Assembly (NCBI GenBank): GCA_964648795.1
Contig: CAZYMB010000002.1
Span: 3,643 to 67,642 of the forward strand
Source: an uncultured Acidimicrobiaceae bacterium
GTDB taxonomy: Bacteria; Actinomycetota; Acidimicrobiia; Acidimicrobiales; SZUA-35
Reading direction: 5' to 3'
Length of the DNA: 64,000 nucleotides
This document shows, in pieces, positions 5,993 through 34,769 of this stretch; position 1 is the stretch's first letter, and each line of letters begins with the position of its first letter. Under the pieces are notes generated by a model. The model was given only the letters and a program-made list of their open reading frames with translations. It ran no database searches and was not told the origin of the DNA. A program made the translations under genes and the position numbers.

Positions 5993-6003
5993 GAAAGCTC
6001 AGC

Positions 6004-6711
6004 CTACCTGGGCATTGATGAGAGCCAATTCTTGAGCTGGACTAAAAGCTCGATATCAGAACCCATATCAGCAATAAAATCGGCAGCAAAATCCAGCCGC
6101 TCGAGATGAGCTGCCGTTGTATACCCTATTACACCAATATTTCCCTTGTACGAACTGAGAAACCCATCTGCGGCTTCGATTGCACTCGGACTAGCGAAGA
6201 ATACGGCAGAACTCGAGTTTAAAGTGGCTTGCTCCTCTTCTGAAATAGGGATCGAAACATTTTTGTAGACCTCTCTGGTCTCAACTGCAGCACCAGAACC
6301 TGCACATAGGTGAGCTATTTGTGAATCAGACGATGAACCTTGCAGTACAAACACTTTGTTTGATTCTTCTAAACAAGCGACAGCTTCGACAGCCAAAGTC
6401 TTTCCATCAGGATTAGAAGCAACTTGAATCTGGTCGAAACCACCAGTGCGCAGCTTTGCGCCAAGGCGTTCAGAAAGGACAGCGAAACTACTATTTTGAA
6501 AATCTTTTGCATGGGCCAAGACATAGTCAACGGCATAACTAGAAGAGCAAACAACGAGACGACTATTTCCACGAAGCCACGTCGGCTCGTCATCTGAGAT
6601 TGAAATCTCAATCAGCGGAAGGTGCTCGACACTGAAGCCATCGGCAATAAGGTCGCCACAAAGACTACCTAACGATCTACCCGCATGAGTTAAAACTAGA
6701 TCTACGCTCAC
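6004..6711 (-). CDS. hemD: Uroporphyrinogen-III synthase
   Basis: The 235-aa protein sits between hemC and hemB. It shows the two-lobed HemD pattern (VVCSSSYAVDYV... and AVFFASPSAIEA...). Sequence conservation is weak, as is usual for this family. Confidence 0.65.
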   Translation of the reverse strand: MSVDLVLTHAGRSLGSLCGDLIADGFSVEHLPLIEISISDDEPTWLRGNSRLVVCSSSYAVDYVLAHAKDFQNSSFAVLSERLGAKLRTGGFDQIQVASNPDGKTLAVEAVACLEESNKVFVLQGSSSDSQIAHLCAGSGAAVETREVYKNVSIPISEEEQATLNSSSAVFFASPSAIEAADGFLSSYKGNIGVIGYTTAAHLERLDFAADFIADMGSDIELLVQLKNWLSSMPR

Positions 6712-11049: not shown

Positions 11050-11108
11050 ATCGACACGTTATCGCATCAACATGTGATCGTACGACTTTGGTCTATCCCA
11101 GGTATCGT

Positions 11109-11900
11109 ATGAGGGTGCCAAACACAGGAATTAACCCTTGGAATAGAGCCCTAGTCACAGGAGCATCTTCTGGCATTGGCCGCGACATGTGCAAAATCCT
11201 GAGCGCCCAGGGAACTGACTTGATTATTGTAGCTAGACGCCAAGATCGTCTAGAAGAATTGGCCGCCCAGCTAGAAACCGACGTCGAAATTCTAGTTGCG
11301 GATTTAACTAAGCAGTCCGATATCGAGGCAGTCGCTAAGAGATTACAAGATGAATCCAAACCGGTTGATCTTCTGATCAACAATGCAGGCCTCGGCAACT
11401 TTGGTACTTTCACAGACCTTGACTTAGATGCAGAGAAAACTGTTATCCAAGTAAACGTCGATGCTCTTCATACGCTTTGCCATGTTGCAGCTAACACCAT
11501 GAAAGAACGTAAGCACGGTTGGATCCTGAACGTAAGTTCGATCTCTGGTTTCGCACCGTATCCTCGCTCTGCAACATATGGCGGGACTAAAGCCTTCGTA
11601 CTCAATTTCTCTGAAGCTCTTCAAGCTGAACTTTCAAAAGATGGTGTTGTAGTTTCAGCGTTGTGTCCTGGGCCAACTCGTACAGAGTTTCAAAGCAACG
11701 CCAAGGTCGACCTAGGCGTGCTGCCGGACTTTCTAATTACAGAGTCGTTAGAAGTTGCAGCAATTGGTTTGTCAGATCTGGCAAAGAAAAAGGCAGTCAG
11801 CGTTCCAGGAACTTCAATGAAAGCAACTCGAGTAATAATCAAGTTGCTTCCAGGTAGCGCTATCCGAAAGATAAGCGACTACATAAGTTCGAAGCGTTAA
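11109..11900 (+). CDS. SDR-family oxidoreductase
   Basis: ALVTGASSGIGRD (TGxxxGIG), NNAG, and a catalytic S...YGGTK motif are present. I moved the start to MRVPNTG because the longer ORF overlaps the divergent phosphatase gene. Confidence 0.8.
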   Translation: MRVPNTGINPWNRALVTGASSGIGRDMCKILSAQGTDLIIVARRQDRLEELAAQLETDVEILVADLTKQSDIEAVAKRLQDESKPVDLLINNAGLGNFGTFTDLDLDAEKTVIQVNVDALHTLCHVAANTMKERKHGWILNVSSISGFAPYPRSATYGGTKAFVLNFSEALQAELSKDGVVVSALCPGPTRTEFQSNAKVDLGVLPDFLITESLEVAAIGLSDLAKKKAVSVPGTSMKATRVIIKLLPGSAIRKISDYISSKR

Positions 11901-19343: not shown

Positions 19344-19922
19344 ATGGAAGGCGCAGAACCAACTCCAGAGGCTAAAGTTGGCCAAAAATCAGCCGTTTCA
19401 GTTTGGGCTGCCCGAGTTGTCTTCGGCATCCTTGGCCTTTCCGTAGCCGCCCTTGGCTTCGCTATTTTCGCCGGTGGAGAAGAAGTCGATCTCAACCCTG
19501 CATTCACCGCAGCACTCGCTACGACTGTATTGACCGAAGACGGTGAATCTACAACTTTCGCCGATGCCTTGCCAGAAGGACCAGTTGTAGTCAACTTCTA
19601 TGCATCTTGGTGTGGTCCATGTCGGGCAGAACTCCCAGACTTTGACGAAGTTAGTCTTAGGGTCGAAGACCAAGTTACTTTCTTAGGTATCAACGTTGAC
19701 CAATCAGAGACCACATGGCGATCATTCAACGAAGAAATACCTGTCTCATACGGGACAGTCTTTCAACCTGGTAGTGAAATCAGAATGCAACTCGATCTAC
19801 TAGCAATGCCAACTACCTTGTTTATTTCAGCCGACGGTGAAATCGTACAACAACACGGCGGCATCTTGGACGACGACTCTCTAATAGAAATACTCGCAGA
19901 ACAGTTTGGAGCAGAGGTATAA
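19344..19922 (+). CDS. TlpA/ResA-like thiol:disulfide oxidoreductase (membrane-anchored thioredoxin fold)
   Basis: An N-terminal TM segment is followed by FYASWCGPCRAELP, which contains the CxxC active site. Confidence 0.85.
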   Translation: MEGAEPTPEAKVGQKSAVSVWAARVVFGILGLSVAALGFAIFAGGEEVDLNPAFTAALATTVLTEDGESTTFADALPEGPVVVNFYASWCGPCRAELPDFDEVSLRVEDQVTFLGINVDQSETTWRSFNEEIPVSYGTVFQPGSEIRMQLDLLAMPTTLFISADGEIVQQHGGILDDDSLIEILAEQFGAEV

Positions 19923-19925
19923 ACC

Positions 19926-20831
19926 ATGGAAGTATTCAGCGCAGCGGCCCTAGCGGCAGGGTTCTTGTTCTTACTAAACCCTTGCAGCTTTGCACTTTTA
20001 CCCAGTTACCTAGGCGTCTTTCTCAACATTAGCCAAGACGACGCACAACGAAGCATCTGGCACAGCATCAGTAAGGCGCAGGTTGTATCACTAATGATGT
20101 CAGCAGGAATGCTCGCAGTCTTCTTACCAGTGGCGTTCTCATTTCAGGGAATCAACGCTGCGCTCGGCGACGCTAGAGCGTGGATCAGCATTGTGCTTGG
20201 CATTGGCCTAGCAATTCTGGGTGTGGCACTATTGAGTGGCTTTAACCTAAACATTACGCTCCCAAAGGTAAAGACCGGCGATACCAAAACCACTTTCGCT
20301 GGAATGTTCGCCTACGGAGCTACCTATGCCATAGCGGCGATGGGCTGCTCTCTTCCAATTCTTCTAGTTGGGCTTAGAGCTGCACCTGGCGCTAGCTTTG
20401 GTACACAACTTGGAACCGCCCTATCTTTCGCTGCCGGCATGGTCGCAGCTCTTATTACACTAACTGTCGCCGTTGCTACAGGTGCTAGTTCAGTCGTGGG
20501 AGTCTTTCGCAAAATCATGACGAAGATGAACCTGATCACTGGGATAATTCTTATCCCAGCTGGTATCTACCTGGCATACTTTGGCTGGTGGGAACTCGAT
20601 CCAGTCAACCGACCACGAGGACCTATTGTCATTCAAGACTTCATTGATGGTGAAGTTGTAGCGTGGATGCGCACCACAGTCGCAGGCGTCAACATAAGTC
20701 GAGCGGCACTTCTTGGAATCATATTCTTGGTGCTAAACCTAGCTCTGGCTGCTCTTGGCTGGTTAAAGCGACCAAACATCGAAACTCAGATTGAAACCGA
20801 CTCTGGTGACGTTAAGGCCAAAGTCGCCTAA
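19926..20831 (+). CDS. ccdA: Cytochrome c biogenesis thiol-reductant transporter CcdA (DsbD family)
   Basis: LNPCSFALLPSYLG and a second conserved Cys (AAMGCSLPIL) are present in a polytopic protein. It lies directly downstream of the ResA-like gene. Confidence 0.85.
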   Translation: MEVFSAAALAAGFLFLLNPCSFALLPSYLGVFLNISQDDAQRSIWHSISKAQVVSLMMSAGMLAVFLPVAFSFQGINAALGDARAWISIVLGIGLAILGVALLSGFNLNITLPKVKTGDTKTTFAGMFAYGATYAIAAMGCSLPILLVGLRAAPGASFGTQLGTALSFAAGMVAALITLTVAVATGASSVVGVFRKIMTKMNLITGIILIPAGIYLAYFGWWELDPVNRPRGPIVIQDFIDGEVVAWMRTTVAGVNISRAALLGIIFLVLNLALAALGWLKRPNIETQIETDSGDVKAKVA

Positions 20832-21483: not shown

Positions 21484-22314
21484 TTATACGAGAGTTCCCG
21501 CAGGCTCGCTTTGAAGAGCAACCCGATCCTTGGCGAGCTCTTTGTTTGCCCAACGGAAGAATATCGTGGCAATAACTGCCCACAAGAAGAACCCACCAAC
21601 AAGCTTCATAATTACACCGGCAGCCTGCTGGTCGGTTAAGACGTTTATATCCCACAGCCTCTGCGCTGTATCGTAGTGCCGATAAACAACGCCCTCAGCA
21701 AAGACCAGCCAACCACCAGGTACTGTTGGCACAATAGACATTGCAAACAAATAGATGCATTTATTCATTGGAGCTAGGTGCCAACTTTTCACAGGCCCAA
21801 TAGCTGGCATCCACATGGCCAATCCGGCAGTGAATATCAAAAGGTGCAAACCGAAGTGAAGTGGACCAGAGTCTGCTGACCACTGCACCAGGAAAGACCA
21901 ATGCAGTAGCAGTGTCAAAGCATTGAAGGTTACTCCTGCCACAACTGGCTTAGAGAACCAACGGAAAGCCTGCCAACCCTTCTTTGCTGGGTCAAAGAAC
22001 AACTCGAATAGCCAAGATGGAAACGAGAGTAGGAACATGCCTGGAATCACTAGCGACAACGCTAGATGCTGCAACATGTGTACCGAATACAGGCGAAACT
22101 CTGCTATTTCGTGCACTGGCCAGTCTGAGACAAGCCACATCGCCCCAACCGCAGCCAGAAACCAAGCCTTCTGTTTGGTTGTGATTGCCGGATACCCAGC
22201 TTTGATTGCCAATGGCTGCAAAACTCTGGCGGTATAGAACCCGATAACAATTACTCCCGCGATCAAGGCCCAAACTTCGAGATGAAGCTCAAACGGAACC
22301 AGAGTATCGAACAT
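21484..22314 (-). CDS. ctaG: Cytochrome c oxidase assembly factor CtaG (caa3 type, membrane)
   Basis: The polytopic protein contains HMLQHLALSLVIP. It is the last gene of the cta cluster, as in Bacillus. Confidence 0.7.
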   Translation of the reverse strand: MFDTLVPFELHLEVWALIAGVIVIGFYTARVLQPLAIKAGYPAITTKQKAWFLAAVGAMWLVSDWPVHEIAEFRLYSVHMLQHLALSLVIPGMFLLSFPSWLFELFFDPAKKGWQAFRWFSKPVVAGVTFNALTLLLHWSFLVQWSADSGPLHFGLHLLIFTAGLAMWMPAIGPVKSWHLAPMNKCIYLFAMSIVPTVPGGWLVFAEGVVYRHYDTAQRLWDINVLTDQQAAGVIMKLVGGFFLWAVIATIFFRWANKELAKDRVALQSEPAGTLV

Positions 22315-22324
22315 TAACTACCGC

Positions 22325-22633
22325 CTAGATTTGAAATTCAAAAGTCGCTAAAGCTGCTATGAAAACCAAGGTAGCGAGTACCACCCCTGTGCCGAACACA
22401 ATCGAAAAAATCTTGCCATTAACTTTACCGTCAAAGCGCAGATGCATAAACACTGCTCCTACCAGAAGGAACTTACCCACCATCATCCCAATGAGAGGCA
22501 ACACCAAAGTAGGCCCTTCAAAGCCAAGGAAACTCCAAGCAACTTCAACCGCTGTTACGACAGCCAGAATTGCAAAGATAATCCAGTAAGACTTCTCTTC
22601 TGGATGTGCGTGTTCTTCATGTGTTGGAGACAT
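22325..22633 (-). CDS. ctaF: Cytochrome c oxidase subunit IV (prokaryotic COX4 family)
   Basis: The 102-aa protein has three TM segments and an N-terminus HEEHAHPEEKSYW. It follows ctaE directly. Confidence 0.75.
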   Translation of the reverse strand: MSPTHEEHAHPEEKSYWIIFAILAVVTAVEVAWSFLGFEGPTLVLPLIGMMVGKFLLVGAVFMHLRFDGKVNGKIFSIVFGTGVVLATLVFIAALATFEFQI

Positions 22634-22643
22634 AAGCGACTTC

Positions 22644-23405
22644 CTAGGGGATCAGGTAAACAATAGTAAAGATTAGCACCCAGACAATATCTACAAAGTG
22701 CCAATACAGGCCCACTAGCTCTACTGTCTCGGCTCTGTCTGATTTAAGCTTTCCTGTGAACGAGAGAATCAGCAGCGTGACCAGCATCAAAATTCCGATA
22801 GTCACGTGAACACCGTGAAACCCAGTGAGAGTATAAAAGGCGGAGCCGAAGAGGTTTCCATCGAAGAAAATACCTTCTCTAAAGAAGACTGTGAACTCGA
22901 CAACCTGACCTGCAATGAAAGTAGAACCTAAGAGCGCTGTAGCGGCCAACCAAACACGAGTGCCTTTGTAATCTCGCTTAGAGATCGCAGAGTGAGCAAG
23001 AACCATTGACAGCGAACTCATTAGCAGAATGAAAGAACTTGCTGACGTGAACGGGATGTCGAAGATTGGCTCTATTGAAGCCTCTTCAATTACCTTCGCA
23101 TACTTTTCTGGCTCAACTTCTCGCAATGTCTCTAGTGAGGCCAACACGTTGGGGTTGCCAGCTGTTAGCTCGGTAATGAAATTCGCCTTTGACAGCAAAT
23201 AGGTCGAAATTAGAGCCCCGAACAACAGGCACTCAGAAGCAAGGAAGATCCACATCGCAAGCTTTAAATTTGAGACTCCCATTGACGTTTCATGCTCGTC
23301 ATGGTCACCATGTCCATCGTCACTGTCGTGGGCGCCATGTTCTTCTGCGTCTGATGTTGGGGGGTTCGGTTCTAATAGGTCGTCATGTTCTAACAGGTCA
23401 CTCAT
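22644..23405 (-). CDS. ctaE: Cytochrome c oxidase subunit III
   Basis: FYTLTGFHGVHVTIG and LYWHFVDIVWVLIF motifs are present. The start at MSDLLEH overlaps the ctaD stop (ATGAGTGA). Confidence 0.9.
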   Translation of the reverse strand: MSDLLEHDDLLEPNPPTSDAEEHGAHDSDDGHGDHDEHETSMGVSNLKLAMWIFLASECLLFGALISTYLLSKANFITELTAGNPNVLASLETLREVEPEKYAKVIEEASIEPIFDIPFTSASSFILLMSSLSMVLAHSAISKRDYKGTRVWLAATALLGSTFIAGQVVEFTVFFREGIFFDGNLFGSAFYTLTGFHGVHVTIGILMLVTLLILSFTGKLKSDRAETVELVGLYWHFVDIVWVLIFTIVYLIP

Positions 23406-25353
23406 GCGTGGCTCCCACCTTCGCTGGTTCCACATCATGGCCGTGTGGGGCATCTAGATCGTCAGCTGGCTCAAGAGCCCAACCAAACATTGCTGCTGTC
23501 ATCAGCAGGACACCTGGGATTACTAGCCAAAGTGTAAATACAAGGCCGTACCCAATAGGAATCATTGAAGCAGCCAACACCATTGGCCAGTAACTTGAAG
23601 CTGGGAGGTGAACGCCCGTACCATCGCCTTCTTGAGCAAGCTCCTCGCCGGTAGCTACACGTTCGAACTTGTTAGTCTCGGCATTGGTCTTAAACTTTTG
23701 GTGCCAGAAATCGTCGAGTGTTTTAACTATTGGGGTCTTGTCGAAATTGTGCTCGGGAGCCGGCGACTGGATTGACCACTCAAGGGTTCTGGCATCCCAA
23801 GGGTCAGCTCCAACATTTGGCCTGCCCATTGACTTCCAAGCTTTGTATGACTTAAAGGCGTTTACTAGAACAAGGATGGTTCCGATTCCAAGGATTAGTG
23901 AACCGATTGATGCAACCTGGTTCCAGAATGTGAAACCCTGCACTGAGCTGTAGGAGTCGAGACGGCGTGGCATACCCTGCAAGCCAAGAACGTGCATTGG
24001 GCCGAAGGTTAGGTTGAAGCCAATTACCATCATCCAGAAGTTGACTTTGCCAAGCTTCTCGTCCAGTTTGTAACCAAAGGCTTTTGGCCACCAGAAGTAA
24101 AGTCCAGCAAAGAAACCGAAGAGTGCTCCACCAAATAATACGTAGTGGAAGTGAGCAACAATGTAGTAGGTGTCTGTTTGCTGTGTGTCAGAAGAAGCAA
24201 ATGCGTGAGAGACGCCACTTAGCCCACCGATGGTGAACTGTGTAACAAGACCAATAGCAAACAGCATCGCGGTGTTGAGGATTATCTTTCCGCCCCACAT
24301 TGTGGCTACCCAATTAAGGACCTTTACGCCGGTTGGGATAGCAATGAACATTGTTGCCAAACTGAAGGCAGTAACGCTTAAAGGGCCTATCCCTGAAACG
24401 AACATGTGGTGGGCCCAAACACCCCAGCCCATGAACCCAATGGCGATCCCACTCATAACCATGAATGGGTAACCGAAGATTGGCTTTCTAGAGAAGGTTG
24501 GGATCACTTCTGAGACAATTCCGAATGCTGGCAGGATCATCAAGTACACCTCAGGGTGCCCGAAGATCCAGAATAGGTGCTGCCATAACAGCGGATCAGC
24601 GCCTTGAGCGACATTAAAGAAGTTCGCCCCAAAGGTTCTGTCTAATAATAAGAGCAGCTGAGCAACGGTAAGTACTGGGATAGCGAACAAAAGTAAGAAC
24701 TGAGTTACAAGCGCCATCCAAACAAAGACAGGCATGCGCATAAGACTCATGCCTGGCGCTCTCATATTTAGAATCGTTGTAATTAAGTTGACTGCACCAG
24801 TTAATGAACCAATACCAACAATTAGAAGAGATACATTCCAGAAGTCGATCCCGACATCTGGGTTGAAGGTCACTCCGGTATTCGGTGCGTACATGAACCA
24901 ACCACCATTCGGGCTGCCTCCAAGGAACCAGCTGGTGTTGAGCATTAAACCACCGGCCAGGAAGACCCAGAAACTGAATGCGTTGATTCTTGGGAACGCT
25001 ACGTCTCGCGCCCCGATCATAAGAGGAAGTAAGTAGTTAGCGAAAGCCGCACCCAATGGCATTACAACCAAGAACACCATAATCGTTCCGTGCATGGTGA
25101 ATATGCGGTTGTAAGTGTCGCCACTAAAGATTGCATCAGCTGGCGTATCAGCCGGAGTGGCAAGCTGAAGACGAATAAGAAGCGCTGCGAAGCCGCCAAT
25201 AATGAAGAAAATCATTGAAGCTATGCCATACATGATGCCGATCTTCTTGTGATCGACGGTTGTCATCCAATCAAGAACGCCCGTTAAATTACGAGGGCGA
25301 GTTAACGAGCCAAGTCCGGCTGTTCTGTTCATTGTTAGCGGGATATCAGTCAT
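23398..25353 (-). CDS. ctaD: Cytochrome c oxidase subunit I (14-helix long form)
   Basis: All canonical ligand motifs are present: FTMHGTIMVF, WIFGHPEVY, WAHHMF and VAHFHYVL. The C-terminal two-helix extension resembles that of Bacillus CtaD. Confidence 0.95.
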   Translation of the reverse strand: MTDIPLTMNRTAGLGSLTRPRNLTGVLDWMTTVDHKKIGIMYGIASMIFFIIGGFAALLIRLQLATPADTPADAIFSGDTYNRIFTMHGTIMVFLVVMPLGAAFANYLLPLMIGARDVAFPRINAFSFWVFLAGGLMLNTSWFLGGSPNGGWFMYAPNTGVTFNPDVGIDFWNVSLLIVGIGSLTGAVNLITTILNMRAPGMSLMRMPVFVWMALVTQFLLLFAIPVLTVAQLLLLLDRTFGANFFNVAQGADPLLWQHLFWIFGHPEVYLMILPAFGIVSEVIPTFSRKPIFGYPFMVMSGIAIGFMGWGVWAHHMFVSGIGPLSVTAFSLATMFIAIPTGVKVLNWVATMWGGKIILNTAMLFAIGLVTQFTIGGLSGVSHAFASSDTQQTDTYYIVAHFHYVLFGGALFGFFAGLYFWWPKAFGYKLDEKLGKVNFWMMVIGFNLTFGPMHVLGLQGMPRRLDSYSSVQGFTFWNQVASIGSLILGIGTILVLVNAFKSYKAWKSMGRPNVGADPWDARTLEWSIQSPAPEHNFDKTPIVKTLDDFWHQKFKTNAETNKFERVATGEELAQEGDGTGVHLPASSYWPMVLAASMIPIGYGLVFTLWLVIPGVLLMTAAMFGWALEPADDLDAPHGHDVEPAKVGATHE

Positions 25354-25364
25354 GTACGGTCATC

Positions 25365-26669
25365 CTAGTCTAGGCTCGACAAGTAGGCAATTACGTCATC
25401 AAGGTTTTCATCAGTCAGTTGGGAGAAAGAAGGCATACCCTGAAGGGATTCTGGGGCCATATCTTTACGACTAGAGGCATCTGAGATCCAACGGGCCAAC
25501 TCCGGTTCGTTAACACGGAACCCTGAGCCTTCTTCAGAAGACAACTGAGCCAAAGCCAAATAGTTGTCGACATCTAGAGCATCATCATTAGGGTCACCGA
25601 TTTCTTCGCCCAGGTAGACACCATAGATCCCACCAGCAAAAGATGAACGGCTAGCAAAGTGTGTCAGATTAGGAGCTGCCAGAGAGTCAAGTGGAGCTAC
25701 GAAGTCATCGGCGTATTCAATTGGGGTTATGTCTGGGCGACCCGACGATTCTTCGTTGATGATGTGGCAGCTTGCGCAGTTCTGAGCGAATATTTCTCGA
25801 CCAGCTAGCGCTGACTCATCTTCTGGAACAGATGCCAGAGTTGACTGGTTCTCTAGCCATGAATCGAAATCTTCTGGCTCTAAGGCGATTGTCGACATCC
25901 TCATACGGGCATGCGACAACCCACAAAACTCTGTACACCAGCCAACAAACTTTCCTGGCTCATCAGCTTCAAGAGACCAAGTATGCAGACGTCCAGGTAC
26001 AGCGTCACGCTTACCATTTAAGCGAGGAATCCAAAATGAATGGATAACATCACGAGAAGTAATAAGTAGGTCAACTTGTTCGCCCGCTGGGATTACCAGT
26101 TCGGTCGCAGTCGCTACGTCATCTCTATCGAGCGAAATCTCTAACGGCAGTTCTTCATCTTGTTCGTCGACAACACCATCACCGTTGGCATCTTGGAAGA
26201 AACCATCGCCGTCAATGTCGTAACGATACTCCCACCACCATTGCTGGCCGATAACCATAACGTCAAGCTCTGAAGGTTCGTTTTCTTCCTCGAGTTCCCA
26301 GATAGTTCCTACCATTGGGATGGAAAGCCCCACAAGAAGAATGAATGGTGCAATAGTCCAACCCCACTCAAGTGTCGGGTTCCCATGAACTTGTTCTGGT
26401 AAGTCATCGAGATCGTCGTCAGCGCTTACTCTGCCCTTAACGGCTAGGGCAATAGTTCCAAAAATGACACCAAACCCGATTAAGAACATGATGACCCAAA
26501 CCCAAGGGGTCATCAGGTCATAGATTGTTTGAGCCCGAGGGCCGCGTGGTTCGAAAGTATTGAGAGGCTTGTCGTCCGCGCAAGCTGATACAACGAGGGT
26601 CAAAAATCCGAGAAACAAAAGCTTCTTTGGATAATAAGACTTGAATCTACTCATCAACTGATTCTCCAA
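25365..26669 (-). CDS. ctaC: Cytochrome c oxidase subunit II with fused C-terminal cytochrome c domain (caa3 type); probable lipoprotein
   Basis: The CuA motif is present (HSFWIP...CTEFCGLSHARM), as is the heme c motif CASCH and the lipobox LVVSAC. An EF-hand-like insertion is reported under findings. Confidence 0.9.
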   Translation of the reverse strand: MENQLMSRFKSYYPKKLLFLGFLTLVVSACADDKPLNTFEPRGPRAQTIYDLMTPWVWVIMFLIGFGVIFGTIALAVKGRVSADDDLDDLPEQVHGNPTLEWGWTIAPFILLVGLSIPMVGTIWELEEENEPSELDVMVIGQQWWWEYRYDIDGDGFFQDANGDGVVDEQDEELPLEISLDRDDVATATELVIPAGEQVDLLITSRDVIHSFWIPRLNGKRDAVPGRLHTWSLEADEPGKFVGWCTEFCGLSHARMRMSTIALEPEDFDSWLENQSTLASVPEDESALAGREIFAQNCASCHIINEESSGRPDITPIEYADDFVAPLDSLAAPNLTHFASRSSFAGGIYGVYLGEEIGDPNDDALDVDNYLALAQLSSEEGSGFRVNEPELARWISDASSRKDMAPESLQGMPSFSQLTDENLDDVIAYLSSLD

Positions 26670-27411
26670 CAGCCTCTTGCTCGTGACTAAAACTTCGTTC
26701 GCCTATCCCAGCCGAAACTATAGCGCCAACCAGAACCGCAAGTGCTCCGAAGCCTAATACTCCGACAATTACATTTCTTGAAGGGCTCTTTTTGGCGAAG
26801 AACGTTGCCCCAACAAAGATCAACAAAGCTACAACTGATACAACAGCAGTTGCCCAAGCAGCTGGCAGCGCTAATAGGATTCTTGATAGCCCAATTACTA
26901 TAAAACCAATCAGGGCCAGCGATGTCATCGGGATGTCGAAGATACCCCCAACCCTGGACTTAAATTCACCAGCAACCGTCGGGTCATCAGAAATTGAATC
27001 CGACCAGGCTTGCAACGCCCACTGCATCCCAACTACAAAACCTAAGACCAACCCGGCGACCAAAAATATTGTTCCAAGCGCTACTCCAGTCACTGTGAGA
27101 GCAGCTGCCAAAGCAAGCAACAATGGCGCAGGGCTCGGGTTCGAGCGTTCTACGGGGTCAACACTCTGAGCTATCCCAGCACTGTCAACTACTACACCCT
27201 CGCGTGTGAGAACTGCTATGACTCCTAAGACAGCGAAGCCAAATGTTAAAGCAATGGCAATCCCGTAACCGAGATGTTCGCCGACACCGTTTCGATACCC
27301 AACGCTAAGAGTTCCGATTATGTTGCCACCGGTCGCTATCCCATAAACAGAAGCAGCTGCATAGCTCAAAAGACTAAGTGACAGAAAGTATCTTGCTCCC
27401 CATTTAATCAT
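26647..27411 (-). CDS. Uncharacterised polytopic membrane protein, co-operonic with the oxidase genes
   Basis: The 254-aa protein has about 7 hydrophobic segments. Its 3' end overlaps the ctaC ORF start by up to 23 nt. I recognised no motif. Confidence 0.55.
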   Translation of the reverse strand: MIKWGARYFLSLSLLSYAAASVYGIATGGNIIGTLSVGYRNGVGEHLGYGIAIALTFGFAVLGVIAVLTREGVVVDSAGIAQSVDPVERSNPSPAPLLLALAAALTVTGVALGTIFLVAGLVLGFVVGMQWALQAWSDSISDDPTVAGEFKSRVGGIFDIPMTSLALIGFIVIGLSRILLALPAAWATAVVSVVALLIFVGATFFAKKSPSRNVIVGVLGFGALAVLVGAIVSAGIGERSFSHEQEAVGESVDE

Positions 27412-27418
27412 CTCAAAC

Positions 27419-28030
27419 CTACTTAGTTATATAAATCGTGTACCAAAGCACACCATAGATCGAAGCGACAGCAGTCCAATAAATGGCAACGGCAGTAACT
27501 GCCTCATACCGTTCACCATCGAAGTCACCAACAACAGTTCTAAAGAGGTTCAAAGCAATGGCCACAAGACCTGCGAGAGTTAGCACCAGTTGAACACCGG
27601 CCATTGCAACTATTAGTACAGCCTGCAGACTCTCTTGCGGGTTTAGCTCTAACAATGTGAATAAGTAGAACGATTGAACAACGAAACCGAACCCAAATAA
27701 CAGTGTCATGCCTTGGGCGAGCATAGCGTTCGACCGATCGCCGTTAGCGGCAGCTGACCGAGCCCACCAGATGCAGACAAAGCTGAAAAGCATGGAGAGA
27801 CCCATGTAGTTTGGCTGTGTCAGCGGGATAGTCACACCATCGGGCAGCCAAACTTCCCCCGTAGAAATTACTTCAGCACGCTCGGCGACATATAACGCTG
27901 TCAGAGCCCCATATGCTGCGAACAAAATAGCAGAAATAAACGTTGCACCAGCGACCACGAGGTTCGGTCGCTTGGCTTCTTTAGTGAGGTCAAGCTCAGA
28001 AAGCGGCTGATATGGAGTCACATCTACCAT
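27419..28030 (-). CDS. Divergent heme-copper oxidase subunit III-like protein
   Basis: By eye, the C-terminal half aligns to CtaE in this window: AVAIYWTAVASIYGVLWYTIYI against LVGLYWHFVDIVWVLIFTIVYL. The upstream helices also align. The length is 203 aa. Confidence 0.6.
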   Translation of the reverse strand: MVDVTPYQPLSELDLTKEAKRPNLVVAGATFISAILFAAYGALTALYVAERAEVISTGEVWLPDGVTIPLTQPNYMGLSMLFSFVCIWWARSAAANGDRSNAMLAQGMTLLFGFGFVVQSFYLFTLLELNPQESLQAVLIVAMAGVQLVLTLAGLVAIALNLFRTVVGDFDGERYEAVTAVAIYWTAVASIYGVLWYTIYITK

Positions 28031-29722
28031 CTAGGAAACTCCTGCTTCTAGTTCTGGCATGTCGCTAGCAGCCTCTAACTCTGGGCCTTTGTTATCCGAC
28101 ACAGACACAAACACATCTTCAGTCAAAGGAACAGCACTACTAACCACAGGAGGTGAAACGAAGTTCTCTTTCACTGGAGGGTTAGCTGTAGCCCACTCCA
28201 AGGTGAGACCTTCCCACTTAGGCTTGGCCGAACCTGTCACTTTAGAAGTTGCGAGCGAAGCAATGTTGCTAATCATGACTAAAGACGCCACGACCATTGC
28301 GACCATGCCAGCGACAGGAAGTACCGCAAACCATTCGCCACCATTGTCAGCGGCTCCCACCGCTAACTCAAGTGTGTCAATCGATACCGTTGAAGCGATT
28401 TGTCCTATAGCCCAAACCACAGCGCCAACTGCGGTGAATACAACACTCATCATTACTAACGATGACTTAATGTGTCGGCCCCAAATTTTAACAGACCAAT
28501 GAAGACTCGCTGCCTGTAAACACACCAGACCAGCCCCGACCACCAAAGGAAATACAGCACCGAAGGCGAACAGGCCTTCAGCTTCTAGTAGACCGCCATC
28601 GATCAGGTCTGGATCAACTGTTGAAATGGAAAGAGGGTCAATTCCGATCTCTGAGATTCGAGTACCAATAGCGTCCACGGCAATTAACACCGAAGCAGCC
28701 AAGGCAAGTTTCAGGCTTAAAGAACTTCCGAGCAATGCTGGAGAAAGCTTGCGAGACTTAGCAATCTTTACGAAGTTATAGAACCAAATACTGGCAACAC
28801 AACCAACCATGCCTGCAGCTACCAAACCATGAAAGTAAACGTTCTCTACGAGACGGATCGACGTGAAATATGCTGAGCCACCGATCACGCTCAAGAAACC
28901 AAGGAAACCAATTGGGACCATAGCCGGTCTGGTGTCTGTAATAGGGCGATCTGTATGAACTGCCACTACCTCACTAGCAAGACCAAGCACTGGCACCAGC
29001 AGCACTAGAGCGCTGGCAGATCTAACAAATGGTGCCATCGTAGTGAGTAATTCGGAGGTATTGCCTAGGGGCAAGTGACCTGAGCGAACTCTAATAAAGC
29101 TGACCACTAACTCGGCAACAAACGCTCCGAGTACGAATGAACCTGAGAATGCAAATACTAAGAAAGCCCATGCACTAACTGGTGCATCGGACAGGTCCAT
29201 ACCCTGAGCCCTTCCAGCAAGAAGTGTGGCCGCTATGCTCGACAAACACCAAATAAGACCAACGGCCATTAAGGCAGCCGACATGGTCCACAACAGTACG
29301 AAGTCAAGTCGTTCCCCACCTGGGCCGCCATCAAACACGTATGAGACGACTAGCAGAATTAAGCCAGCCACCCATATCCAGAAACCTGCAGTTGCACCCT
29401 TTTCAAAAGCAAGCCCGTTCGCTCCAACTTGCAATGGCACAGCATAAAGTCCCAAACCAACAAAACCTGGAAAGATAGCTCCGAGTATTAAAGCCTCCCG
29501 GGCAAAGGACCAAATTTGACGGAACTGGCCGGCATTCTGGAAGAGATCAAAAGTAGCTAAATCAGTTGCCTCAAAGGCTGCCCCTCCAGCCGCTATTAGA
29601 GCAAGTAGCAATACTAGAATCGACGCGCCAATCATCAACCGACCGATCTCTTTGTGACCGGAGGAAAGAATCTGTGTAGTCGCAGCGGGATAACTAGTTT
29701 GAGTAGTGGTCATGGGCCCCAA
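28031..29722 (-). CDS. Heme-copper oxidase subunit I paralog lacking the canonical heme and CuB histidine ligands
   Basis: The protein aligns collinearly by eye to CtaD. GHKEIGRLMIGAS aligns to DHKKIGIMYGIAS, AVPLQVGANGLAFEKGATAGFWIW to [24 protein letters not shown], and LTLEWATANPPVKENF to RTLEWSIQSPAPEHNF. The ligand positions instead read FAREALIL, RSASAL and LFAFGAVF. Confidence 0.7.
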   Translation of the reverse strand: MGPMTTTQTSYPAATTQILSSGHKEIGRLMIGASILVLLLALIAAGGAAFEATDLATFDLFQNAGQFRQIWSFAREALILGAIFPGFVGLGLYAVPLQVGANGLAFEKGATAGFWIWVAGLILLVVSYVFDGGPGGERLDFVLLWTMSAALMAVGLIWCLSSIAATLLAGRAQGMDLSDAPVSAWAFLVFAFSGSFVLGAFVAELVVSFIRVRSGHLPLGNTSELLTTMAPFVRSASALVLLVPVLGLASEVVAVHTDRPITDTRPAMVPIGFLGFLSVIGGSAYFTSIRLVENVYFHGLVAAGMVGCVASIWFYNFVKIAKSRKLSPALLGSSLSLKLALAASVLIAVDAIGTRISEIGIDPLSISTVDPDLIDGGLLEAEGLFAFGAVFPLVVGAGLVCLQAASLHWSVKIWGRHIKSSLVMMSVVFTAVGAVVWAIGQIASTVSIDTLELAVGAADNGGEWFAVLPVAGMVAMVVASLVMISNIASLATSKVTGSAKPKWEGLTLEWATANPPVKENFVSPPVVSSAVPLTEDVFVSVSDNKGPELEAASDMPELEAGVS

Positions 29723-30633
29723 CCAACTAACTGATCAACCGCCATGGCGACGAACAGGATAGTTAAGTAAGTAATCGAAAACTGAAAATACTTTATCGCT
29801 TGCTGGGCCTGTATTGATGTATTTTTGGAAAGGTATAGTCGCAGGGCCTTCCAGGTAAACATTGCACCCGCTATAAGAGCAGTTGTTATGTAAATTACGC
29901 CCATTTCAGCGGCTGCAGCGAAGCCCAATGAGAAGAACCATGTAATGGCAGCATAAACAGTCATTTGCAGGGCTGTATTTGAGTGACCGGCCACGGCGGG
30001 CATCATGGGAACAGAGGCGTTCTTGTAATCGTTTTCGTACTTTATGGCTAAGGCCCAAAAGTGTGGAGGTGTCCAGAAGAAGATGACTGCAAACAGAATC
30101 CATGGGGCGAGAGCCAACTCGTTTGTTACTGCACTCCAACCAACCAATGCTGGAACAGCGCCTGCAGCACCACCAATAACAATGTTCTGCTCATTGCTAC
30201 GCTTTAGCCAGAGCGTGTAGATAAAGACGTAAAAAAGGCAGGCCGCCACAGCCAATACTGCTGACAGGTAATTAACAGTAAGGCTAAGCCACAGAAACGC
30301 AGCAATTTCTAACACGTAGGCAAACAGCTTGGCTTCCCAAGGCTTGATGGCGCCTGTAACAAGTGGCCTGCGAGCTGTTCGCTCCATTAAATGGTCGATG
30401 TCGCGATCGATATACATGTTGAATGCATTCGCTCCACCTGCTGCCAAAGCCCCACCAATCAAGGTATAGAACATCAGTGAAATGCTTGGCAAACCACGCT
30501 GGGCGACAAACATCGTCGGAATTGTGGTCACTAACAACAGCTCGATAATACGTGGTTTAGTAAGGGCCAAAAAGTGACGCCAACGACCTAAGCCAGTGAT
30601 GTGAGTTTGAGGTGCACGGACTGCTGTTACCAC
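29710..30633 (-). CDS. ctaB: Protoheme IX farnesyltransferase (heme O synthase)
   Basis: The UbiA-family motif GGANAFNMYIDRDIDHLMERTARRPLVTG is present in a polytopic 307-aa protein. Confidence 0.9.
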   Translation of the reverse strand: MVTAVRAPQTHITGLGRWRHFLALTKPRIIELLLVTTIPTMFVAQRGLPSISLMFYTLIGGALAAGGANAFNMYIDRDIDHLMERTARRPLVTGAIKPWEAKLFAYVLEIAAFLWLSLTVNYLSAVLAVAACLFYVFIYTLWLKRSNEQNIVIGGAAGAVPALVGWSAVTNELALAPWILFAVIFFWTPPHFWALAIKYENDYKNASVPMMPAVAGHSNTALQMTVYAAITWFFSLGFAAAAEMGVIYITTALIAGAMFTWKALRLYLSKNTSIQAQQAIKYFQFSITYLTILFVAMAVDQLVGWGP

Positions 30634-30673: not shown

Positions 30674-32014
30674 TCAGCCAAACAACGCTTTAAGCGATTC
30701 ATCGCTTTGATTCTGGTAAAGCGTAAATGGATCTATTAGAGAAACTCCAAGGCCTTCTGTGAATTCTGGCTCTGAGCCCACGGAGTGAGTGGGACTAGCA
30801 TCTGGAGATAGGTTCGATTGGAAAATGCTGGCTGCCGACACAGGGAGAAAATCCTCATAAATAATGGGGTCAGCACGTACAAAACCCTCACCAACTAGCT
30901 CATCTAGGTCTTGGGGCGTTGCCCCTGCAGGTAACGGTTGGATGGCCCTAAATTCAAAGTAACCCAAGCCACGACGACGCAACTCATCATAAGAATCAGG
31001 AAAACTTGCAAATGCCATACTCAGCGCAGCGTGAGCATTGCCTCCCTCTGCTAGAAGACCCTGAGATTTTTTGAGGGCAAGATCATAAAGCTGGCGACCT
31101 TCCGGGGTTAGCGCTATGCCGCGTTGTTCGATCTCACCGAATCGGGCAGTATGCGAACCTGGACGTAACTCTCCACCCGGTGACGGAAAATTGACTGATT
31201 CTGACAGCGCCATGAACGATGTTTGGCGAAGCAGTATCGGACACTTTCGTTTTGGTGGACCTTCAATCGTTTCTTTCGGAGTGATTCCACGCTTGCTCAT
31301 AGTTGCGTGCGCTACATCAATGTCGAGCGTCCGAGGAGTTAAATGGTTTATGTGCGGTCCTTGGAAGCTAACTATGTCTGCAACCAGGCGGTGCGAGTCC
31401 AGTAACCTTTCATAGAGCTGAAGCCCGATGCTTGCATCCGAGTGCCAGCGAAAAGTTTCCATAAACGCCGAGATAAATTCGCTTGTCTCAGATTTTGATA
31501 GGCCTTCACCAGTCTCTGCTAAGTCGAGCATCCGAAGAGCATTTCTAGAAAAGATGTTTCTATTGTCGATTAGTTCTTTAGCGGTCTCACGTAGCTCCGG
31601 GTCTTCTATTGCCGCCAGATTCAGAACAGAGGTAAACATCCTAAATGGAGATGTAGCCAGAGCTTCTGAAGTAATTGGCCTAAAGGAAGTTGACTGAACT
31701 GGGATACCGGCTGGACCTAGGTCGTAATAGCCAACTGGATGCATACCTAGTACCCGGAAGAAACGGGCCATCGTCTTCAACTCGGCGAAACTACCAAGTC
31801 TTATTGCCCCGTGGCGTTCATCGTTTACACGCTCAAGGCCACCATTAACCGATAGTTGCTGTTCTAATGTTTCGTCTCGTGCCAATACTTCGGCATTGAT
31901 GTCTTCAACTAGTTCGATAAGGGTTCCGTACGCTGGAACTTCCGCTCGATACATTTTAGATATAGCTGCGGCGAACTCTGACCGAATATCGTCTTGTGGT
32001 TCGGGGGTGCGCAC
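30674..32014 (-). CDS. DUF1338 / HglS-YdcJ family protein (putative 2-oxoadipate dioxygenase/decarboxylase)
   Basis: The 446-aa length matches E. coli YdcJ. The N-terminal pattern (F...MY..EVP.Y..L) and the HGAIRLGS...FFRVLGMHPVGYYDL segment fit my memory of the family. Confidence 0.6.
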   Translation of the reverse strand: MRTPEPQDDIRSEFAAAISKMYRAEVPAYGTLIELVEDINAEVLARDETLEQQLSVNGGLERVNDERHGAIRLGSFAELKTMARFFRVLGMHPVGYYDLGPAGIPVQSTSFRPITSEALATSPFRMFTSVLNLAAIEDPELRETAKELIDNRNIFSRNALRMLDLAETGEGLSKSETSEFISAFMETFRWHSDASIGLQLYERLLDSHRLVADIVSFQGPHINHLTPRTLDIDVAHATMSKRGITPKETIEGPPKRKCPILLRQTSFMALSESVNFPSPGGELRPGSHTARFGEIEQRGIALTPEGRQLYDLALKKSQGLLAEGGNAHAALSMAFASFPDSYDELRRRGLGYFEFRAIQPLPAGATPQDLDELVGEGFVRADPIIYEDFLPVSAASIFQSNLSPDASPTHSVGSEPEFTEGLGVSLIDPFTLYQNQSDESLKALFG

Positions 32015-32018
32015 GAGC

Positions 32019-34769
32019 CTACGCTATCTGGGCTGCCAGTAATTCAATTGGATGCATGGGTTTATAACCAAATCTTCGCATCTGTGTCCTACACGAGTAA
32101 CCCTCTGCCAATAACTGTCCTGTCGATTCTTCGATAACTGGCTGCCAGTACTGGGAAAACAGTGAATGGCTCATTTCAGCATTCTCTTGTTCATGGCCAA
32201 ATATCCCAGCCATGCCACAGCATGTAAGAGCATGGACATCTACATTAACCCCGGCTCCGGCCAATAGGTCTTGGTAACTTGATCTACTCTGATGACCTTG
32301 TGAGCAATGTCTAAAAAGACTTCCGCTTCCTGAAGCGTTAACATGAATTCTTTCATTGGCCAAATAGTCACCAAGGTCTTGGACCACCTCAGATGGAAAG
32401 TTTGGGTCAGCCTTTACATACTCGTTTGAGTACAAAGAAACAATTGACGGCTCCAAACCCACTACTGGTTTATCAAGCCTTTGTAAAACTTGGATGAGTT
32501 CGCTTTGTGCTACCACACCTTTAGCAAATTTTGAGCGGCGCCCTTTTACATGGTCAAATTTAGCGGATGGCAAAAACTTAGTCACAGCTACTTGCTTGCC
32601 AGCAGATTGAAGGAACTCAATAGCAGCTGCCAGAACGCTTGGGTCAAGATATGTCGTAAAGAAGTCAGACGCAATAATTACATCTGCCGTGCAAGCTTGG
32701 GTCTTACCATTGACCCTTTCAAGGCCTTTCAGCTGAGTTGGTGCGGCTTTTATTTTTGGCAGATCAACCAGTCCTAGCGCTACTGCTCCAGCTGGCTTAC
32801 CCAGGTTTAACAAGGGCCGCATAGCCGATTTTGAGCCCAACTGTTCGAAATCTGACAATATCCGATTACGAAGTTTGTGCCTGAGCCCAAGACCGTCGTA
32901 GCGGCTAAAGAAATTCGATTTGAGCTCGCCCATGTCAACATTTACAGGGCACTGAGTTGTGCATGCCGTACAAGATAGACATTGATGCATCGACGAAGCG
33001 AGTTCGTCAGCTAGAAGACCATCGGTTGGATCCGCCAACCAAGAACGAACTAAATCCGCTCTACCCTTGGGCGAAAGCCTTGGGTCTAAGGTCACCTTAT
33101 ATGAGGGACACATAGCGTCAGTGGCAGACCAACTATGACAAATGCCGTTGCCATTGCAATCGAGAGCCGAAGAAAAGTCAGCTTCACTAATCTGTTTGTT
33201 CGTTTCTCCTCTGAGAGGAACTGCATCTATGCGAAGGAGTTCTTCATCTACTTGGAACGGAGCATAAAGTTTGCGAGGGTTAAATATGTTCGACGGGTCA
33301 AAGGCTGTTTTGATTTCTCGCATCGACTTGTGTAGCTCGTCTGAGATTCCATGATACTCGCCTCTAAAACCTCGACCGTGCTCGCCCCAAAGCACACCTC
33401 CAAAAGAACTCACCAACGCCGAGACTTCGTTCGACAAGGTACGGACGAGTTGCACATCTTTGGATTCACGCAAATCAAGCACAGGCCGGACGTGGATACA
33501 ACCGACATCGGCATGCCCAAACATCCCATAGGAAAGGTCGTAACGGTCGAGGAGCTTCGTAAATTGTTTTACAAAGTGCCCCATACTGGCTGGCGGTACG
33601 GAGCAGTCCTCAATAAATGCAACGGCTGCTCCAGACGATGTTGGTTTGGCTAGAAAACCAACCGCATCTGCCCTTAGTCTCCAAAGCTCGGTCACAAGTT
33701 CTGCTGAATCGAGCTCTACCACATTTGATACAACCTCAGACAGTCGTTCCTGCACTCCCGTGACTTCGGCATCGAACTCTAAAATTAGGAGTGCCGAATT
33801 TTCTAGGTTTAAGTTTCGAGACAGACGGCGCGCACTGACCGAAGTTGCAGCCAACTTTAGAGTTCTCTCGTCTAGAGCTTCGATAACTCGTGGTTCAAGT
33901 GTCCGTAATACGACCGAAGCTTCGACTGCTTCTTGAAAGGAACCGAACGACGCTACAAACGTCTGGCTTTTAGTTTCGATTGGAACGAGATTAATTTCTA
34001 TAGCTGTAACCAACCCAAGTGTTCCTTCTGCACCACAAAGTAACTTTGTAAAGTCGACTAATTCGCCAGCGGCCTCTGCCAAGTTGTAGCCAGAGAACCC
34101 TCGCTCAAGATTTGGCAACGAACCTATGTCTGCGTTTGAAATAGTGGCGCCGACTGAAGCCACCAGTGATGCTGGAGCCAGATCTTTCTCGGGCAATTTT
34201 GATTGATGCCCAGGCTTAGTAAAACGTACTGACGAGCCGTTGAACAATACAGATTCTATGGCTAGAACATGCTTGTTAGTTCGACCATACACCAGCGACC
34301 CTTTACCAGAGGCATCGGTGGCCACCATCCCACCAATTGTTGCCCTTGAAGAGGTAGAGGTATGTGGGGCAAACATTAAGCCACTTGGAGCGAGTTCGTT
34401 GTTCAATTCTCCAAGTACTACCCCTGGCTCCACTATCGCTGTTCGCGATTGGGCATCTACCGAGACAATACGATTCATGGAGCGGCGAAAATCAACTACC
34501 ACCTCGGTGGTCAGGCTTTGACCGTTTGTGCCAGTGCCACCACCACGAGCCACCAACCCAAACGGCTCCTTCAACGAGTTATTCGCCCTAACTAACGCTG
34601 CTACGTCAGCTGACGTTTCAGGAATTACGATCATTGCTGGCTCTAATTGGTAAATAGAATTATCAGTTGAATACGCGATTCGACTAGAAACCTCTGACTC
34701 GAGTTTCCCGGCAAAGCCTTGCTCGACAATTACCTCAGACAATAAATTGAGTTGTGTGACTAACGACAC
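32019..34769 (-). CDS. FAD-binding (GlcD-like) plus 4Fe-4S and CCG-domain fused oxidoreductase, YdiJ-like (putative D-2-hydroxyacid dehydrogenase)
   Basis: The N-terminal FAD_binding_4 signature is present (ARGGGTGTNGQS), together with a ferredoxin-type CLSCTACTTQCP and a cysteine-rich CCG motif (LTCCGMAGIFGHE). The length is 916 aa. Confidence 0.7.
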   Translation of the reverse strand: MSLVTQLNLLSEVIVEQGFAGKLESEVSSRIAYSTDNSIYQLEPAMIVIPETSADVAALVRANNSLKEPFGLVARGGGTGTNGQSLTTEVVVDFRRSMNRIVSVDAQSRTAIVEPGVVLGELNNELAPSGLMFAPHTSTSSRATIGGMVATDASGKGSLVYGRTNKHVLAIESVLFNGSSVRFTKPGHQSKLPEKDLAPASLVASVGATISNADIGSLPNLERGFSGYNLAEAAGELVDFTKLLCGAEGTLGLVTAIEINLVPIETKSQTFVASFGSFQEAVEASVVLRTLEPRVIEALDERTLKLAATSVSARRLSRNLNLENSALLILEFDAEVTGVQERLSEVVSNVVELDSAELVTELWRLRADAVGFLAKPTSSGAAVAFIEDCSVPPASMGHFVKQFTKLLDRYDLSYGMFGHADVGCIHVRPVLDLRESKDVQLVRTLSNEVSALVSSFGGVLWGEHGRGFRGEYHGISDELHKSMREIKTAFDPSNIFNPRKLYAPFQVDEELLRIDAVPLRGETNKQISEADFSSALDCNGNGICHSWSATDAMCPSYKVTLDPRLSPKGRADLVRSWLADPTDGLLADELASSMHQCLSCTACTTQCPVNVDMGELKSNFFSRYDGLGLRHKLRNRILSDFEQLGSKSAMRPLLNLGKPAGAVALGLVDLPKIKAAPTQLKGLERVNGKTQACTADVIIASDFFTTYLDPSVLAAAIEFLQSAGKQVAVTKFLPSAKFDHVKGRRSKFAKGVVAQSELIQVLQRLDKPVVGLEPSIVSLYSNEYVKADPNFPSEVVQDLGDYLANERIHVNASGSGSLFRHCSQGHQSRSSYQDLLAGAGVNVDVHALTCCGMAGIFGHEQENAEMSHSLFSQYWQPVIEESTGQLLAEGYSCRTQMRRFGYKPMHPIELLAAQIA

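Follow-up and report, generated by a model that had tools for sequence, protein, structure and literature searches.

Why should an operon that encodes a complete caa3-type cytochrome c oxidase also carry what looks like the membrane core of a second oxidase, from which the heme and copper ligands are missing? The question is raised by a 64,000-nucleotide stretch of DNA from an uncultured Acidimicrobiaceae bacterium (GenBank assembly GCA_964648795.1, contig CAZYMB010000002.1, positions 3,643 to 67,642 of the forward strand; "the window" below), in which three genes, here called X, Y and Z, lie between the heme O synthase gene ctaB and the oxidase genes ctaC to ctaG. The trio is a real and well-supported feature. 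By sequence comparison its products are paralogs, in degenerate form, of the membrane subunits that make up the core of an actinobacterial-type aa3 oxidase: CtaD, CtaE and, probably, the subunit IV CtaF. Because the heme and copper ligands, the catalytic tyrosine and the proton-channel residues have all been lost, X, Y and Z in this lineage can neither reduce oxygen nor pump protons in the known way. The role that we favor, with a probability of roughly 0.5, is a general non-catalytic one, as a redox-dead pseudo-oxidase scaffold partnering heme O synthase and the caa3 oxidase.

A subunit I homolog without heme or copper ligands

An earlier note on this DNA, made by eye, described X as collinear with the CtaD encoded downstream and Y as a divergent subunit III paralog, and suggested profile hidden Markov models as a check. 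These have now been run, and both proteins score above the respective Pfam cut-offs: X with 77.7 bits against COX1 (PF00115; cut-off 34.8, E 1e-21) and Y with 26.7 bits against COX3 (PF00510; cut-off 23.8). The collinearity of X with CtaD is found again by BLASTP (21% identity, E 3e-14) and by hhalign, which aligns profiles of about 55 orthologs of each protein over 534 columns with a probability of 100% (E 1e-54 to 1e-77). Hydropathy gives X 12 hydrophobic membrane segments, and its best relatives in the PDB are the CtaD proteins of actinobacterial aa3 oxidases.

At the six positions that ligate heme and CuB, the profile-profile alignment finds no histidine in X (0 of 6; replacements in Table 1); in the neighboring CtaD all six histidines and the cross-linked tyrosine are present. 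BLASTP, HMMER, MAFFT and profile-profile alignment concur on the loss of the ligands and of the tyrosine, as had been read from the sequence earlier, and at helices II and VI the same result is given by HMMER alignments of X with oxidases of known structure. One detail of the earlier reading has to be withdrawn: a single CuB histidine thought to be retained (H298, in VYFHGL, 28823-28840) takes that place in the pairwise BLAST alignment alone. GGSAYF occupies the site in the profile alignment, H298 is Asn in most relatives, and this residue was accordingly rejected as a CuB ligand.

The remaining machinery of an oxidase has gone as well. X is without the heme-propionate arginine pair, the D-channel aspartate (GA.D.AFPR loop) is a glycine, and the K-channel region is absent, the region of the helix VIII lysine being not alignable. 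X contains six histidines in total, and the only two conserved in its family, H23 and H408, are at cytoplasmic helix ends, in positions of non-ligand residues in true oxidases. R75, on the other hand, is conserved in 91% of the family. X is a homolog of subunit I of the heme-copper oxidase (HCO) superfamily but does not belong to it as a functional enzyme; a cbb3-type enzyme or one of the nitric oxide reductase (NOR) type is ruled out by the absence of ligands.

The partner proteins Y and Z

Y, with five helices and no histidine at all, is aligned to CtaE by hhalign with a probability of 98% (E 9e-14), and its best PDB match is the CtaE of M. smegmatis (203 aa), aligned end to end. Together with the COX3 score, this upholds its assignment as a divergent paralog of subunit III.

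Z had been called an unassignable protein of about seven transmembrane segments. The helix count stands, in that an AlphaFold2 (AF2) model has seven helices, albeit at low confidence (predicted local distance difference test score, pLDDT, 60.8), and no family in Pfam or NCBIfam is matched above threshold; Foldseek searches with the model return only generic seven-helix noise (TM-score about 0.2). What has to be qualified is "unassignable", since there is a weak likeness to CtaF, a four-helix protein, at one hairpin (residues 84-150). With hhalign this segment matches the two-helix C-terminal extension of CtaD (probability 74%, E 2.7e-5). Pfam PF12270 is found at sub-threshold level in the Z proteins of four relatives (E 1.8e-4 to 0.82), always at the same hairpin, and a PDB search with the Z profile has as its best match an actinobacterial "cytochrome c oxidase polypeptide 4" (CtaF, 9wcx_m, E 0.018). 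These weak signals converge on the third and fourth helices, and a relationship of Z to the actinobacterial subunit IV is moderately supported by them.

In A-family oxidases a hairpin of the PS.WP type forms the first two helices of the seven-helix subunit III; where subunit III has five helices, the hairpin is carried on subunit I or IV instead. X with 12 helices, Y with five and the hairpin of Z would then reproduce the core made up of CtaD (14 helices) and CtaE (five). A homolog of COX2 is not found in the trio, the window Z is without a cupredoxin domain, and its tail is a short remnant with two histidines. Nor do X, Y and Z have any Pfam or NCBIfam match to the assembly factors Surf1, Cox11/CtaG, Sco, PCuAC, CtaA or CtaM.

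Hairpins of this kind occur elsewhere. The C-terminal two-helix extension of the window CtaD itself (residues ~574-628, 23470-23634) passes the threshold of PF12270, the actinobacterial subunit IV family (32.2 bits), and beside this extension the operon additionally encodes a separate subunit IV of the caa3 type (COX4_pro). In about 21 Dehalococcoidia genomes (loci L057-L082, ~5300-6450 in each), a conserved protein of about 380 aa is encoded directly upstream of ctaC and consists of a soluble N-terminal part and two tandem repeats of "H.PPPS + hairpin", which resemble PF12270 (E 2.7e-4), the CtaD C-terminal extension (hhalign 95%) and, weakly, Z (73%).

Operon organization

The nine genes ctaB, X, Y, Z, ctaC, ctaD, ctaE, ctaF and ctaG follow each other in this order, all on the minus strand (Table 1). 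The TGA stop of ctaB overlaps an ATG of X at 29713 as ATGA, an overlap of 4 nt that leaves X with 560 aa. This ATG is likely the true start, the one chosen by gene callers in relatives; the 13-nt overlap noted earlier holds with a TTG start. The other junctions were confirmed as first described. The TAG stop of X runs directly into the ATG of Y, which is preceded by an AGGAG Shine-Dalgarno sequence located inside the 3' end of X; Y and Z are spaced by 7 nt; and Z overlaps the start of ctaC, by 8 nt if the ctaC ATG at 26654 is used. X, Y and Z are translationally coupled to the heme O synthase gene upstream and to the caa3 oxidase genes downstream. They also appear to be co-transcribed with both. 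In a consensus scan the counts of promoters and terminators inside the cluster were at or below chance. No ctaA gene was found in the 64-kb window. The likely start of ctaE is at 23405, by the gene call in the relative L001.

Table 1. Genes of the cta operon of the window and the segments of X and Z discussed in the text (X numbering from the 563-aa reading frame)
Feature	Position	Strand	Evidence or remark
ctaB, heme O synthase	29710..30633	-	Pfam UbiA 210.8 bits; NCBIfam heme o synthase 398.9 bits
X, 563 aa, COX1 (HCO subunit I) paralog	28031..29722	-	Pfam COX1 77.7 bits
X helix II, WSFAREA for FTMHGTI	29492..29512	-	heme a ligand His, CtaD H88 -> X A74
X helix VI, FVRSASAL for IFGHPEVY	29006..29029	-	CuB His, CtaD H266 -> X S235; gating Glu, E268 -> S237; cross-linked Tyr, Y270 -> L239
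X helix VII, GGSAYF aligned to WAHHMF	28865..28882	-	both CuB His gone, CtaD H315/H316 -> X A284/Y285; profile-profile alignment
X helix X, GLFAFGAVF aligned to VAHFHYVL	28550..28576	-	heme a3 and heme a ligands gone, CtaD H401/H403 -> X L384/A386
X C-terminal cytoplasmic motif TLEWAT	28187..28204	-	within W.G.TLEW.T..PP...NF
Y, 203 aa, COX3 (subunit III) paralog	27419..28030	-	Pfam COX3 26.7 bits
Z, 254 aa, ~7-helix membrane protein	26647..27411	-	AF2 helices; N-terminal half weakly CtaF-like
Z residues 84-150, PS..P-type two-helix hairpin	26962..27162	-	matches subunit-IV-like CtaD C-terminal extension
ctaC, subunit II with fused cytochrome c domain	25365..26654 (ORF to 26669)	-	Pfam COX2, Cytochrom_C; NCBIfam CoxB 174.9 bits
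ctaD, authentic subunit I	23398..25353	-	Pfam COX1 529.7 bits; Cyt_c_ox_IV 32.2 bits
ctaE, authentic subunit III	22644..23453	-	Pfam COX3 77.1 bits
ctaF, caa3-type subunit IV	22325..22633	-	Pfam COX4_pro
ctaG, caa3-type copper assembly factor	21484..22314	-	Pfam Caa3_CtaG 126.6 bits

Selection and conservation

Measured against relatives of 75-86% identity, X has a non-synonymous divergence (dN) of 0.17-0.18, Y and Z have one of 0.09-0.10, and synonymous divergence (dS) is above 1.2 and saturated. Their ratio, omega, can be read only in the manner of an upper bound, since synonymous sites are saturated in the longer comparisons; dN nevertheless lies so far below the saturated dS that X, Y and Z must be under strong purifying selection. 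A 99%-identical contig differs in seven codons, four synonymous and three non-synonymous, which is too few to inform. Pairwise identities compared over 38 genomes have a median of 0.42 in X and of 0.47 in Y and in Z, against 0.77 in CtaD, 0.70 in CtaE and 0.67 in CtaB, so that the trio, although constrained, is less so than the oxidase proper, and its members are the fastest-evolving genes of the operon. Split copies of X, Y or Z are rare and look like assembly errors, because every contig that carries one has a split in the true ctaC or ctaD as well.

Conservation within X is uneven. It is concentrated in the N-side loops, helices I-V and the C-terminal tail: an N-terminal motif DHK..GR; the cytoplasmic loops VPLQ.GA...AF.R, R..GM.....P...W and HW..K.WGR; a periplasmic loop GGPGG; and the tail motif W.G.TLEW.T..PP...NF, which is among the best-kept parts of the family. 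Cytoplasmic motifs common to true CtaD are retained in X, and residues 210-400, the former catalytic core, are essentially unconserved.

Distribution and cofactor loss in relatives

An exhaustive HMMER search finds 518 clusters (at 50% identity) that match X with E<1e-3, 235 of them below 1e-10. The full HHYHHHH pattern of true oxidases occurs in just 3 of 148 full-length sequences examined. Named members come exclusively from Acidimicrobiales, Acidimicrobiia, Iamia, Microthrixaceae, Ilumatobacteraceae or unclassified Actinomycetota. Closest to the window is an uncultured Acidimicrobiales metagenome-assembled genome (75% identity in X, 90% in CtaD), and the source organism is a relative of the Acidimicrobiales.

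When one genome per species was scanned, about 55 Acidimicrobiia loci spanning 22-75% identity were returned, and the order ctaB-X-Y-Z-ctaC-ctaD-ctaE-ctaF-ctaG is found in every scanned locus that is long enough. About 25 Dehalococcoidia loci, picked up through the shared TLEWA motif and encoding a true CtaD, are excluded from this count. The scan used a 10-sequence alignment, since a 38-sequence alignment of X had no stretch conserved enough, and is therefore biased toward close relatives. The synteny ctaB-X-Y-Z-ctaC, for which the earlier note proposed a search of related genomes, is kept in some 55 of them, from Acidimicrobiales and Ilumatobacteraceae. The word "inserted", by which the earlier note had described the position of the module within the cta cluster, has to be abandoned: the module is ancestral to the class.

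Metagenome contigs add some variants. In one lineage ctaA lies upstream, and in L084 ctaA, ctaB, X, Y and Z are contiguous. A JGI metagenome contig, L085 (1-12384), carries ctaB, a CtaG-like fragment, X, Y and Z, with no ctaCDEF on its 12 kb. Side observations on these contigs are a 97-aa Cupredoxin_1-like gene (11060-11353, minus strand) that lies, in the divergent lineage of L084, between Z and ctaC but in the opposite orientation, and a series of Fur, ZnuA and ABC transporter genes that follows the cluster in L085.

The loss of cofactors in the family is graded. At three ligand columns of X the commonest residue is Gln (H266 in 62 of 148 sequences, H315 in 85 of 148 and H401 in 45 of 148), and His to Gln is a single third-position codon change. 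Both axial histidines of the low-spin heme are kept in 27 of 149 sequences. In tests made with no phylogenetic correction, the two tend to be retained together (odds ratio 9.8), and where the helix II histidine is lost an arginine tends to fill the next position (odds ratio 0.15, p 1e-6). The variation in Z runs parallel to this: in L085, L055 and the protein P0186 its C-terminal end is a cupredoxin domain that passes Pfam thresholds and has an intact type-1 copper motif (H...C-x2-H-x3-M), and the X of L085 keeps both low-spin heme ligands. The Z proteins of Ilumatobacteraceae, about 380 aa long, are modelled by AF2 with a pLDDT of 73.9 overall and about 85-90 in the C-terminal domain, whose only PDB matches are cupredoxins (TM-score 0.53-0.71); this domain is without copper ligands and has two conserved cysteines. 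The cupredoxin on the relatives' Z is of the type-1 copper or the copper-less kind, never CuA. Most Acidimicrobiales Z proteins carry a His/Glu-rich C-terminal tail that is predicted to face outward; in the window clade a short remnant of it is left. The relatives thus form a series of three steps, from low-spin heme ligands with blue copper, through a Gln-substituted X with a copper-less cupredoxin, as in Ilumatobacteraceae, to neither in the window clade, and the module persists after its redox centers vanish.

A stretch of similar composition is found in the operon itself: the N-terminus of the authentic CtaE has a His/Asp/Glu-rich segment, EEHGAHDSDDGHGDHDEHE (ORF residues ~37-55, 23289-23345), which may bind metal and which resembles the His/Glu-rich tails of most Acidimicrobiales Z proteins.

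Possible role of the X-Y-Z module

In the preferred reading X, Y and Z would join in a membrane complex that has the shape of an oxidase but no cofactors, and this complex would serve the real oxidase as a scaffold at its side. The caa3 oxidase, or a supercomplex, could have in it a permanent structural partner; alternatively, it could offer a platform on which CtaB meets the oxidase subunits while the enzyme is being built. Docking would take place at the conserved parts of X, namely its cytoplasmic-face loops, helices I-V and C-terminal tail, and helices VI-X, the former catalytic core, would be free to drift. A non-catalytic role of this general kind appears consistent with all the evidence. 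For the putative stable association with the caa3 oxidase or a supercomplex, the evidence is the operon coupling.

Several points weigh against this scaffold role. One comes from an exploratory analysis in which the pairwise distances of each protein were regressed on the operon average, with curvature allowed, and the residuals compared. Co-variation of the residuals is seen among ctaB, X, Y and Z (r 0.27-0.51, partial Mantel p<=0.008) and likewise among ctaC, D, E and G (r 0.27-0.60), and no positive correlation was found between the two blocks. X, Y and Z are thereby tied to ctaB and not to ctaC, D and E, which fits a role in biogenesis, or a separate history, better than stable contact with the catalytic subunits. 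The residual design partly forces an outcome of two blocks, and the pattern could stem from a recombination boundary instead of from function; it does agree with the ATGA coupling of ctaB to X and with L085. The second point is L085 itself, where ctaB-X-Y-Z stands without ctaCDEF within the 12-kb contig. Thirdly, the fast evolution of the trio (identity 0.42-0.47, versus 0.77 for CtaD) means that the constraint on it is weak, and lastly the structure models of Z are of only low to moderate confidence.

A more ambitious account, which we put forward only tentatively, treats the trio as a class-wide complex of the Acidimicrobiia, derived from an HCO, from which the oxygen chemistry has been stripped in stages. 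The basal forms would be electron-transfer modules so far unrecognized, in which a type-1 copper domain feeds a single low-spin heme within a subunit I fold and a binuclear center is lacking, and in the window clade the complex would have become a cofactor-free, obligatory partner of the caa3 oxidase in its structure or its biogenesis, for instance a pseudo-oxidase that docks the oxidase to CtaB or to the bc complex.

The main rival reading, possible if somewhat doubtful, is that the trio is a dedicated assembly platform, a transient mimic of the apo-oxidase that works with CtaB (and CtaA) outside the mature enzyme and would hold heme O or A, and perhaps copper, and hand them over to nascent CtaD and CtaC. 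Several of the observations above speak for such a platform: the ATGA overlap of ctaB and X, the contiguity of ctaA, ctaB, X, Y and Z in L084, the company of a CtaG-like gene with ctaCDEF not nearby in L085, the co-variation of the X and Z residuals with ctaB (r 0.39-0.51, p 0.001) and not with ctaC, D or E, the retention of both low-spin heme axial histidines in about one sixth of the family, the His/Glu-rich and predicted outward-facing tail of most Acidimicrobiales Z proteins, and the cytoplasmic motifs that X shares with true CtaD. The handling of cofactors by known chemistry is, however, unsupported in the window lineage, because its X has no heme ligand and the tail of its Z is down to two histidines. 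The lack of any similarity found to Surf1, Cox11, Sco, PCuAC, CtaG or CtaM tells against this account too, and the Mantel blocks on which it draws could reflect the recombination boundary just mentioned.

That the three-pore fold of the HCOs has been reused as a conduit or transporter for ions, protons or small molecules, in a role outside respiration to which the operon link is merely historical, seems unlikely. The 12-helix fold is retained, an intramembrane arginine (R75) is conserved where the heme ligand histidine was lost, and the module of L085 is found apart from ctaCDEF, all of which speak for a conduit; but the pore-lining helices VI-X are the least conserved part of X, the known D- and K-channel residues are gone, and about 55 genomes keep the module within the cta operon.

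Very improbable is the idea that non-canonical ligands still let the window X bind heme or metal and work as a redox enzyme or electron carrier. Redox activity is probable for some members of the family, since basal relatives keep the low-spin heme histidine pair and a true type-1 copper domain on Z. The window X, by contrast, has its six histidines, of which the conserved pair, H23 and H408, sits at cytoplasmic non-ligand positions; Y has none, and the cupredoxin domain is missing from Z.

Finally, the notion that an oxidase duplication left X, Y and Z behind as relics without function, now on their way out, for which their rank as the fastest-evolving genes of the operon and the uninformative four-to-three count on the near-identical contig might be cited, can be dismissed, as the earlier note had argued, in view of reading frames intact in about 55 species-level genomes at 22-75% identity, a dN of 0.09-0.18 far below a dS above 1.2, and the upkeep of motifs, helix count and translational coupling.

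Relation to known systems

The best solved relatives of X, Y and Z are in the aa3 core of the actinobacterial bcc-aa3 supercomplexes of Mycobacterium and Corynebacterium (CtaD, CtaE and CtaF; 6adq, 7rh5, 7q21, 9wcx). The likeness extends to the 12-helix subunit I fold of X, the five-helix, 203-aa subunit III match of Y and the subunit-IV-like hairpin of Z. Unlike that core, the trio lacks heme and copper ligands, the tyrosine cross-link, D- and K-channel residues and its own CuA subunit II; there are additional helices in Z, and the adjoining genes encode a caa3 oxidase that is separate and complete.

Variant families of the HCO superfamily that do not reduce oxygen and have no tyrosine cofactor are known (cNOR, qNOR, eNOR, bNOR, sNOR, gNOR and nNOR), and among them gNOR was the first HCO family seen to replace even a single histidine among those of the active site, which are otherwise completely conserved (bioRxiv 10.1101/2021.10.15.464467). 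The NOR families keep both hemes and a metal site, whereas all six histidines are gone from the window X. The best functional analogy comes from cytochrome bd, in which the catalytic subunit pairs with a degenerate, faster-evolving paralog (CydA', "b-type" CydA or CydB); these partners are without substrate or proton-channel features, keep one heme ligand, and have been demonstrated to associate physically with the catalytic subunit (bioRxiv 10.1101/2021.01.16.426971). The bd superfamily is unrelated, and the corresponding association of X, Y and Z is presumed. AcoP of Acidithiobacillus, a membrane-anchored cupredoxin encoded in an oxidase cluster, binds the cytochrome c oxidase tightly and keeps it active (PMC4059628). 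It is comparable to the cupredoxin-bearing Z of the relatives; AcoP has a single helix, and the window Z lacks the domain. The earlier note knew of no described system of this kind, and none was found in the full-text literature, a search from which subscription journals were mostly excluded, so that an earlier mention is possible.

The family is a large and conserved one, in a class of Actinomycetota abundant in marine, freshwater, soil and wastewater habitats, that has kept the fold and discarded every ligand, and the intermediates found among its relatives form a natural series in which to study how the chemistry of a respiratory enzyme is lost. Should the staged loss of oxygen chemistry prove true, X, Y and Z would be the first set of pseudoenzyme subunits described in the HCO superfamily; should they be a structural or biogenesis partner, they would represent a new kind of accessory component, built from a dead copy of the oxidase. 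There is also a practical side. Public annotations (NCBI, JGI) label P0011, P0014, P0042 and other members as "cbb3-type cytochrome c oxidase subunit I" or "heme/copper-type oxidase subunit 1", and because ligand-less X proteins bear such labels in the databases, metagenomic surveys may over-count terminal oxidases and wrongly infer low-oxygen cbb3 respiration in Acidimicrobiia.

Neighboring genes

Upstream of ctaB, at a distance of 40 nt and on the same strand, lie an HGLS-family gene and a gene for a 916-aa FAD/Fe-S oxidase (30674-34769). The same pair precedes ctaB in the relative L001, and the transcription unit may be longer than the nine genes of the cluster. On the other side, about 650 bp past ctaG and on the opposite strand, there is a thioredoxin/TlpA-like gene (19344-19922) together with an unassigned 301-aa ORF (19926-20831), a pair that may serve copper or cytochrome c maturation and that is separated from ctaG by a pyridoxamine-phosphate oxidase gene.

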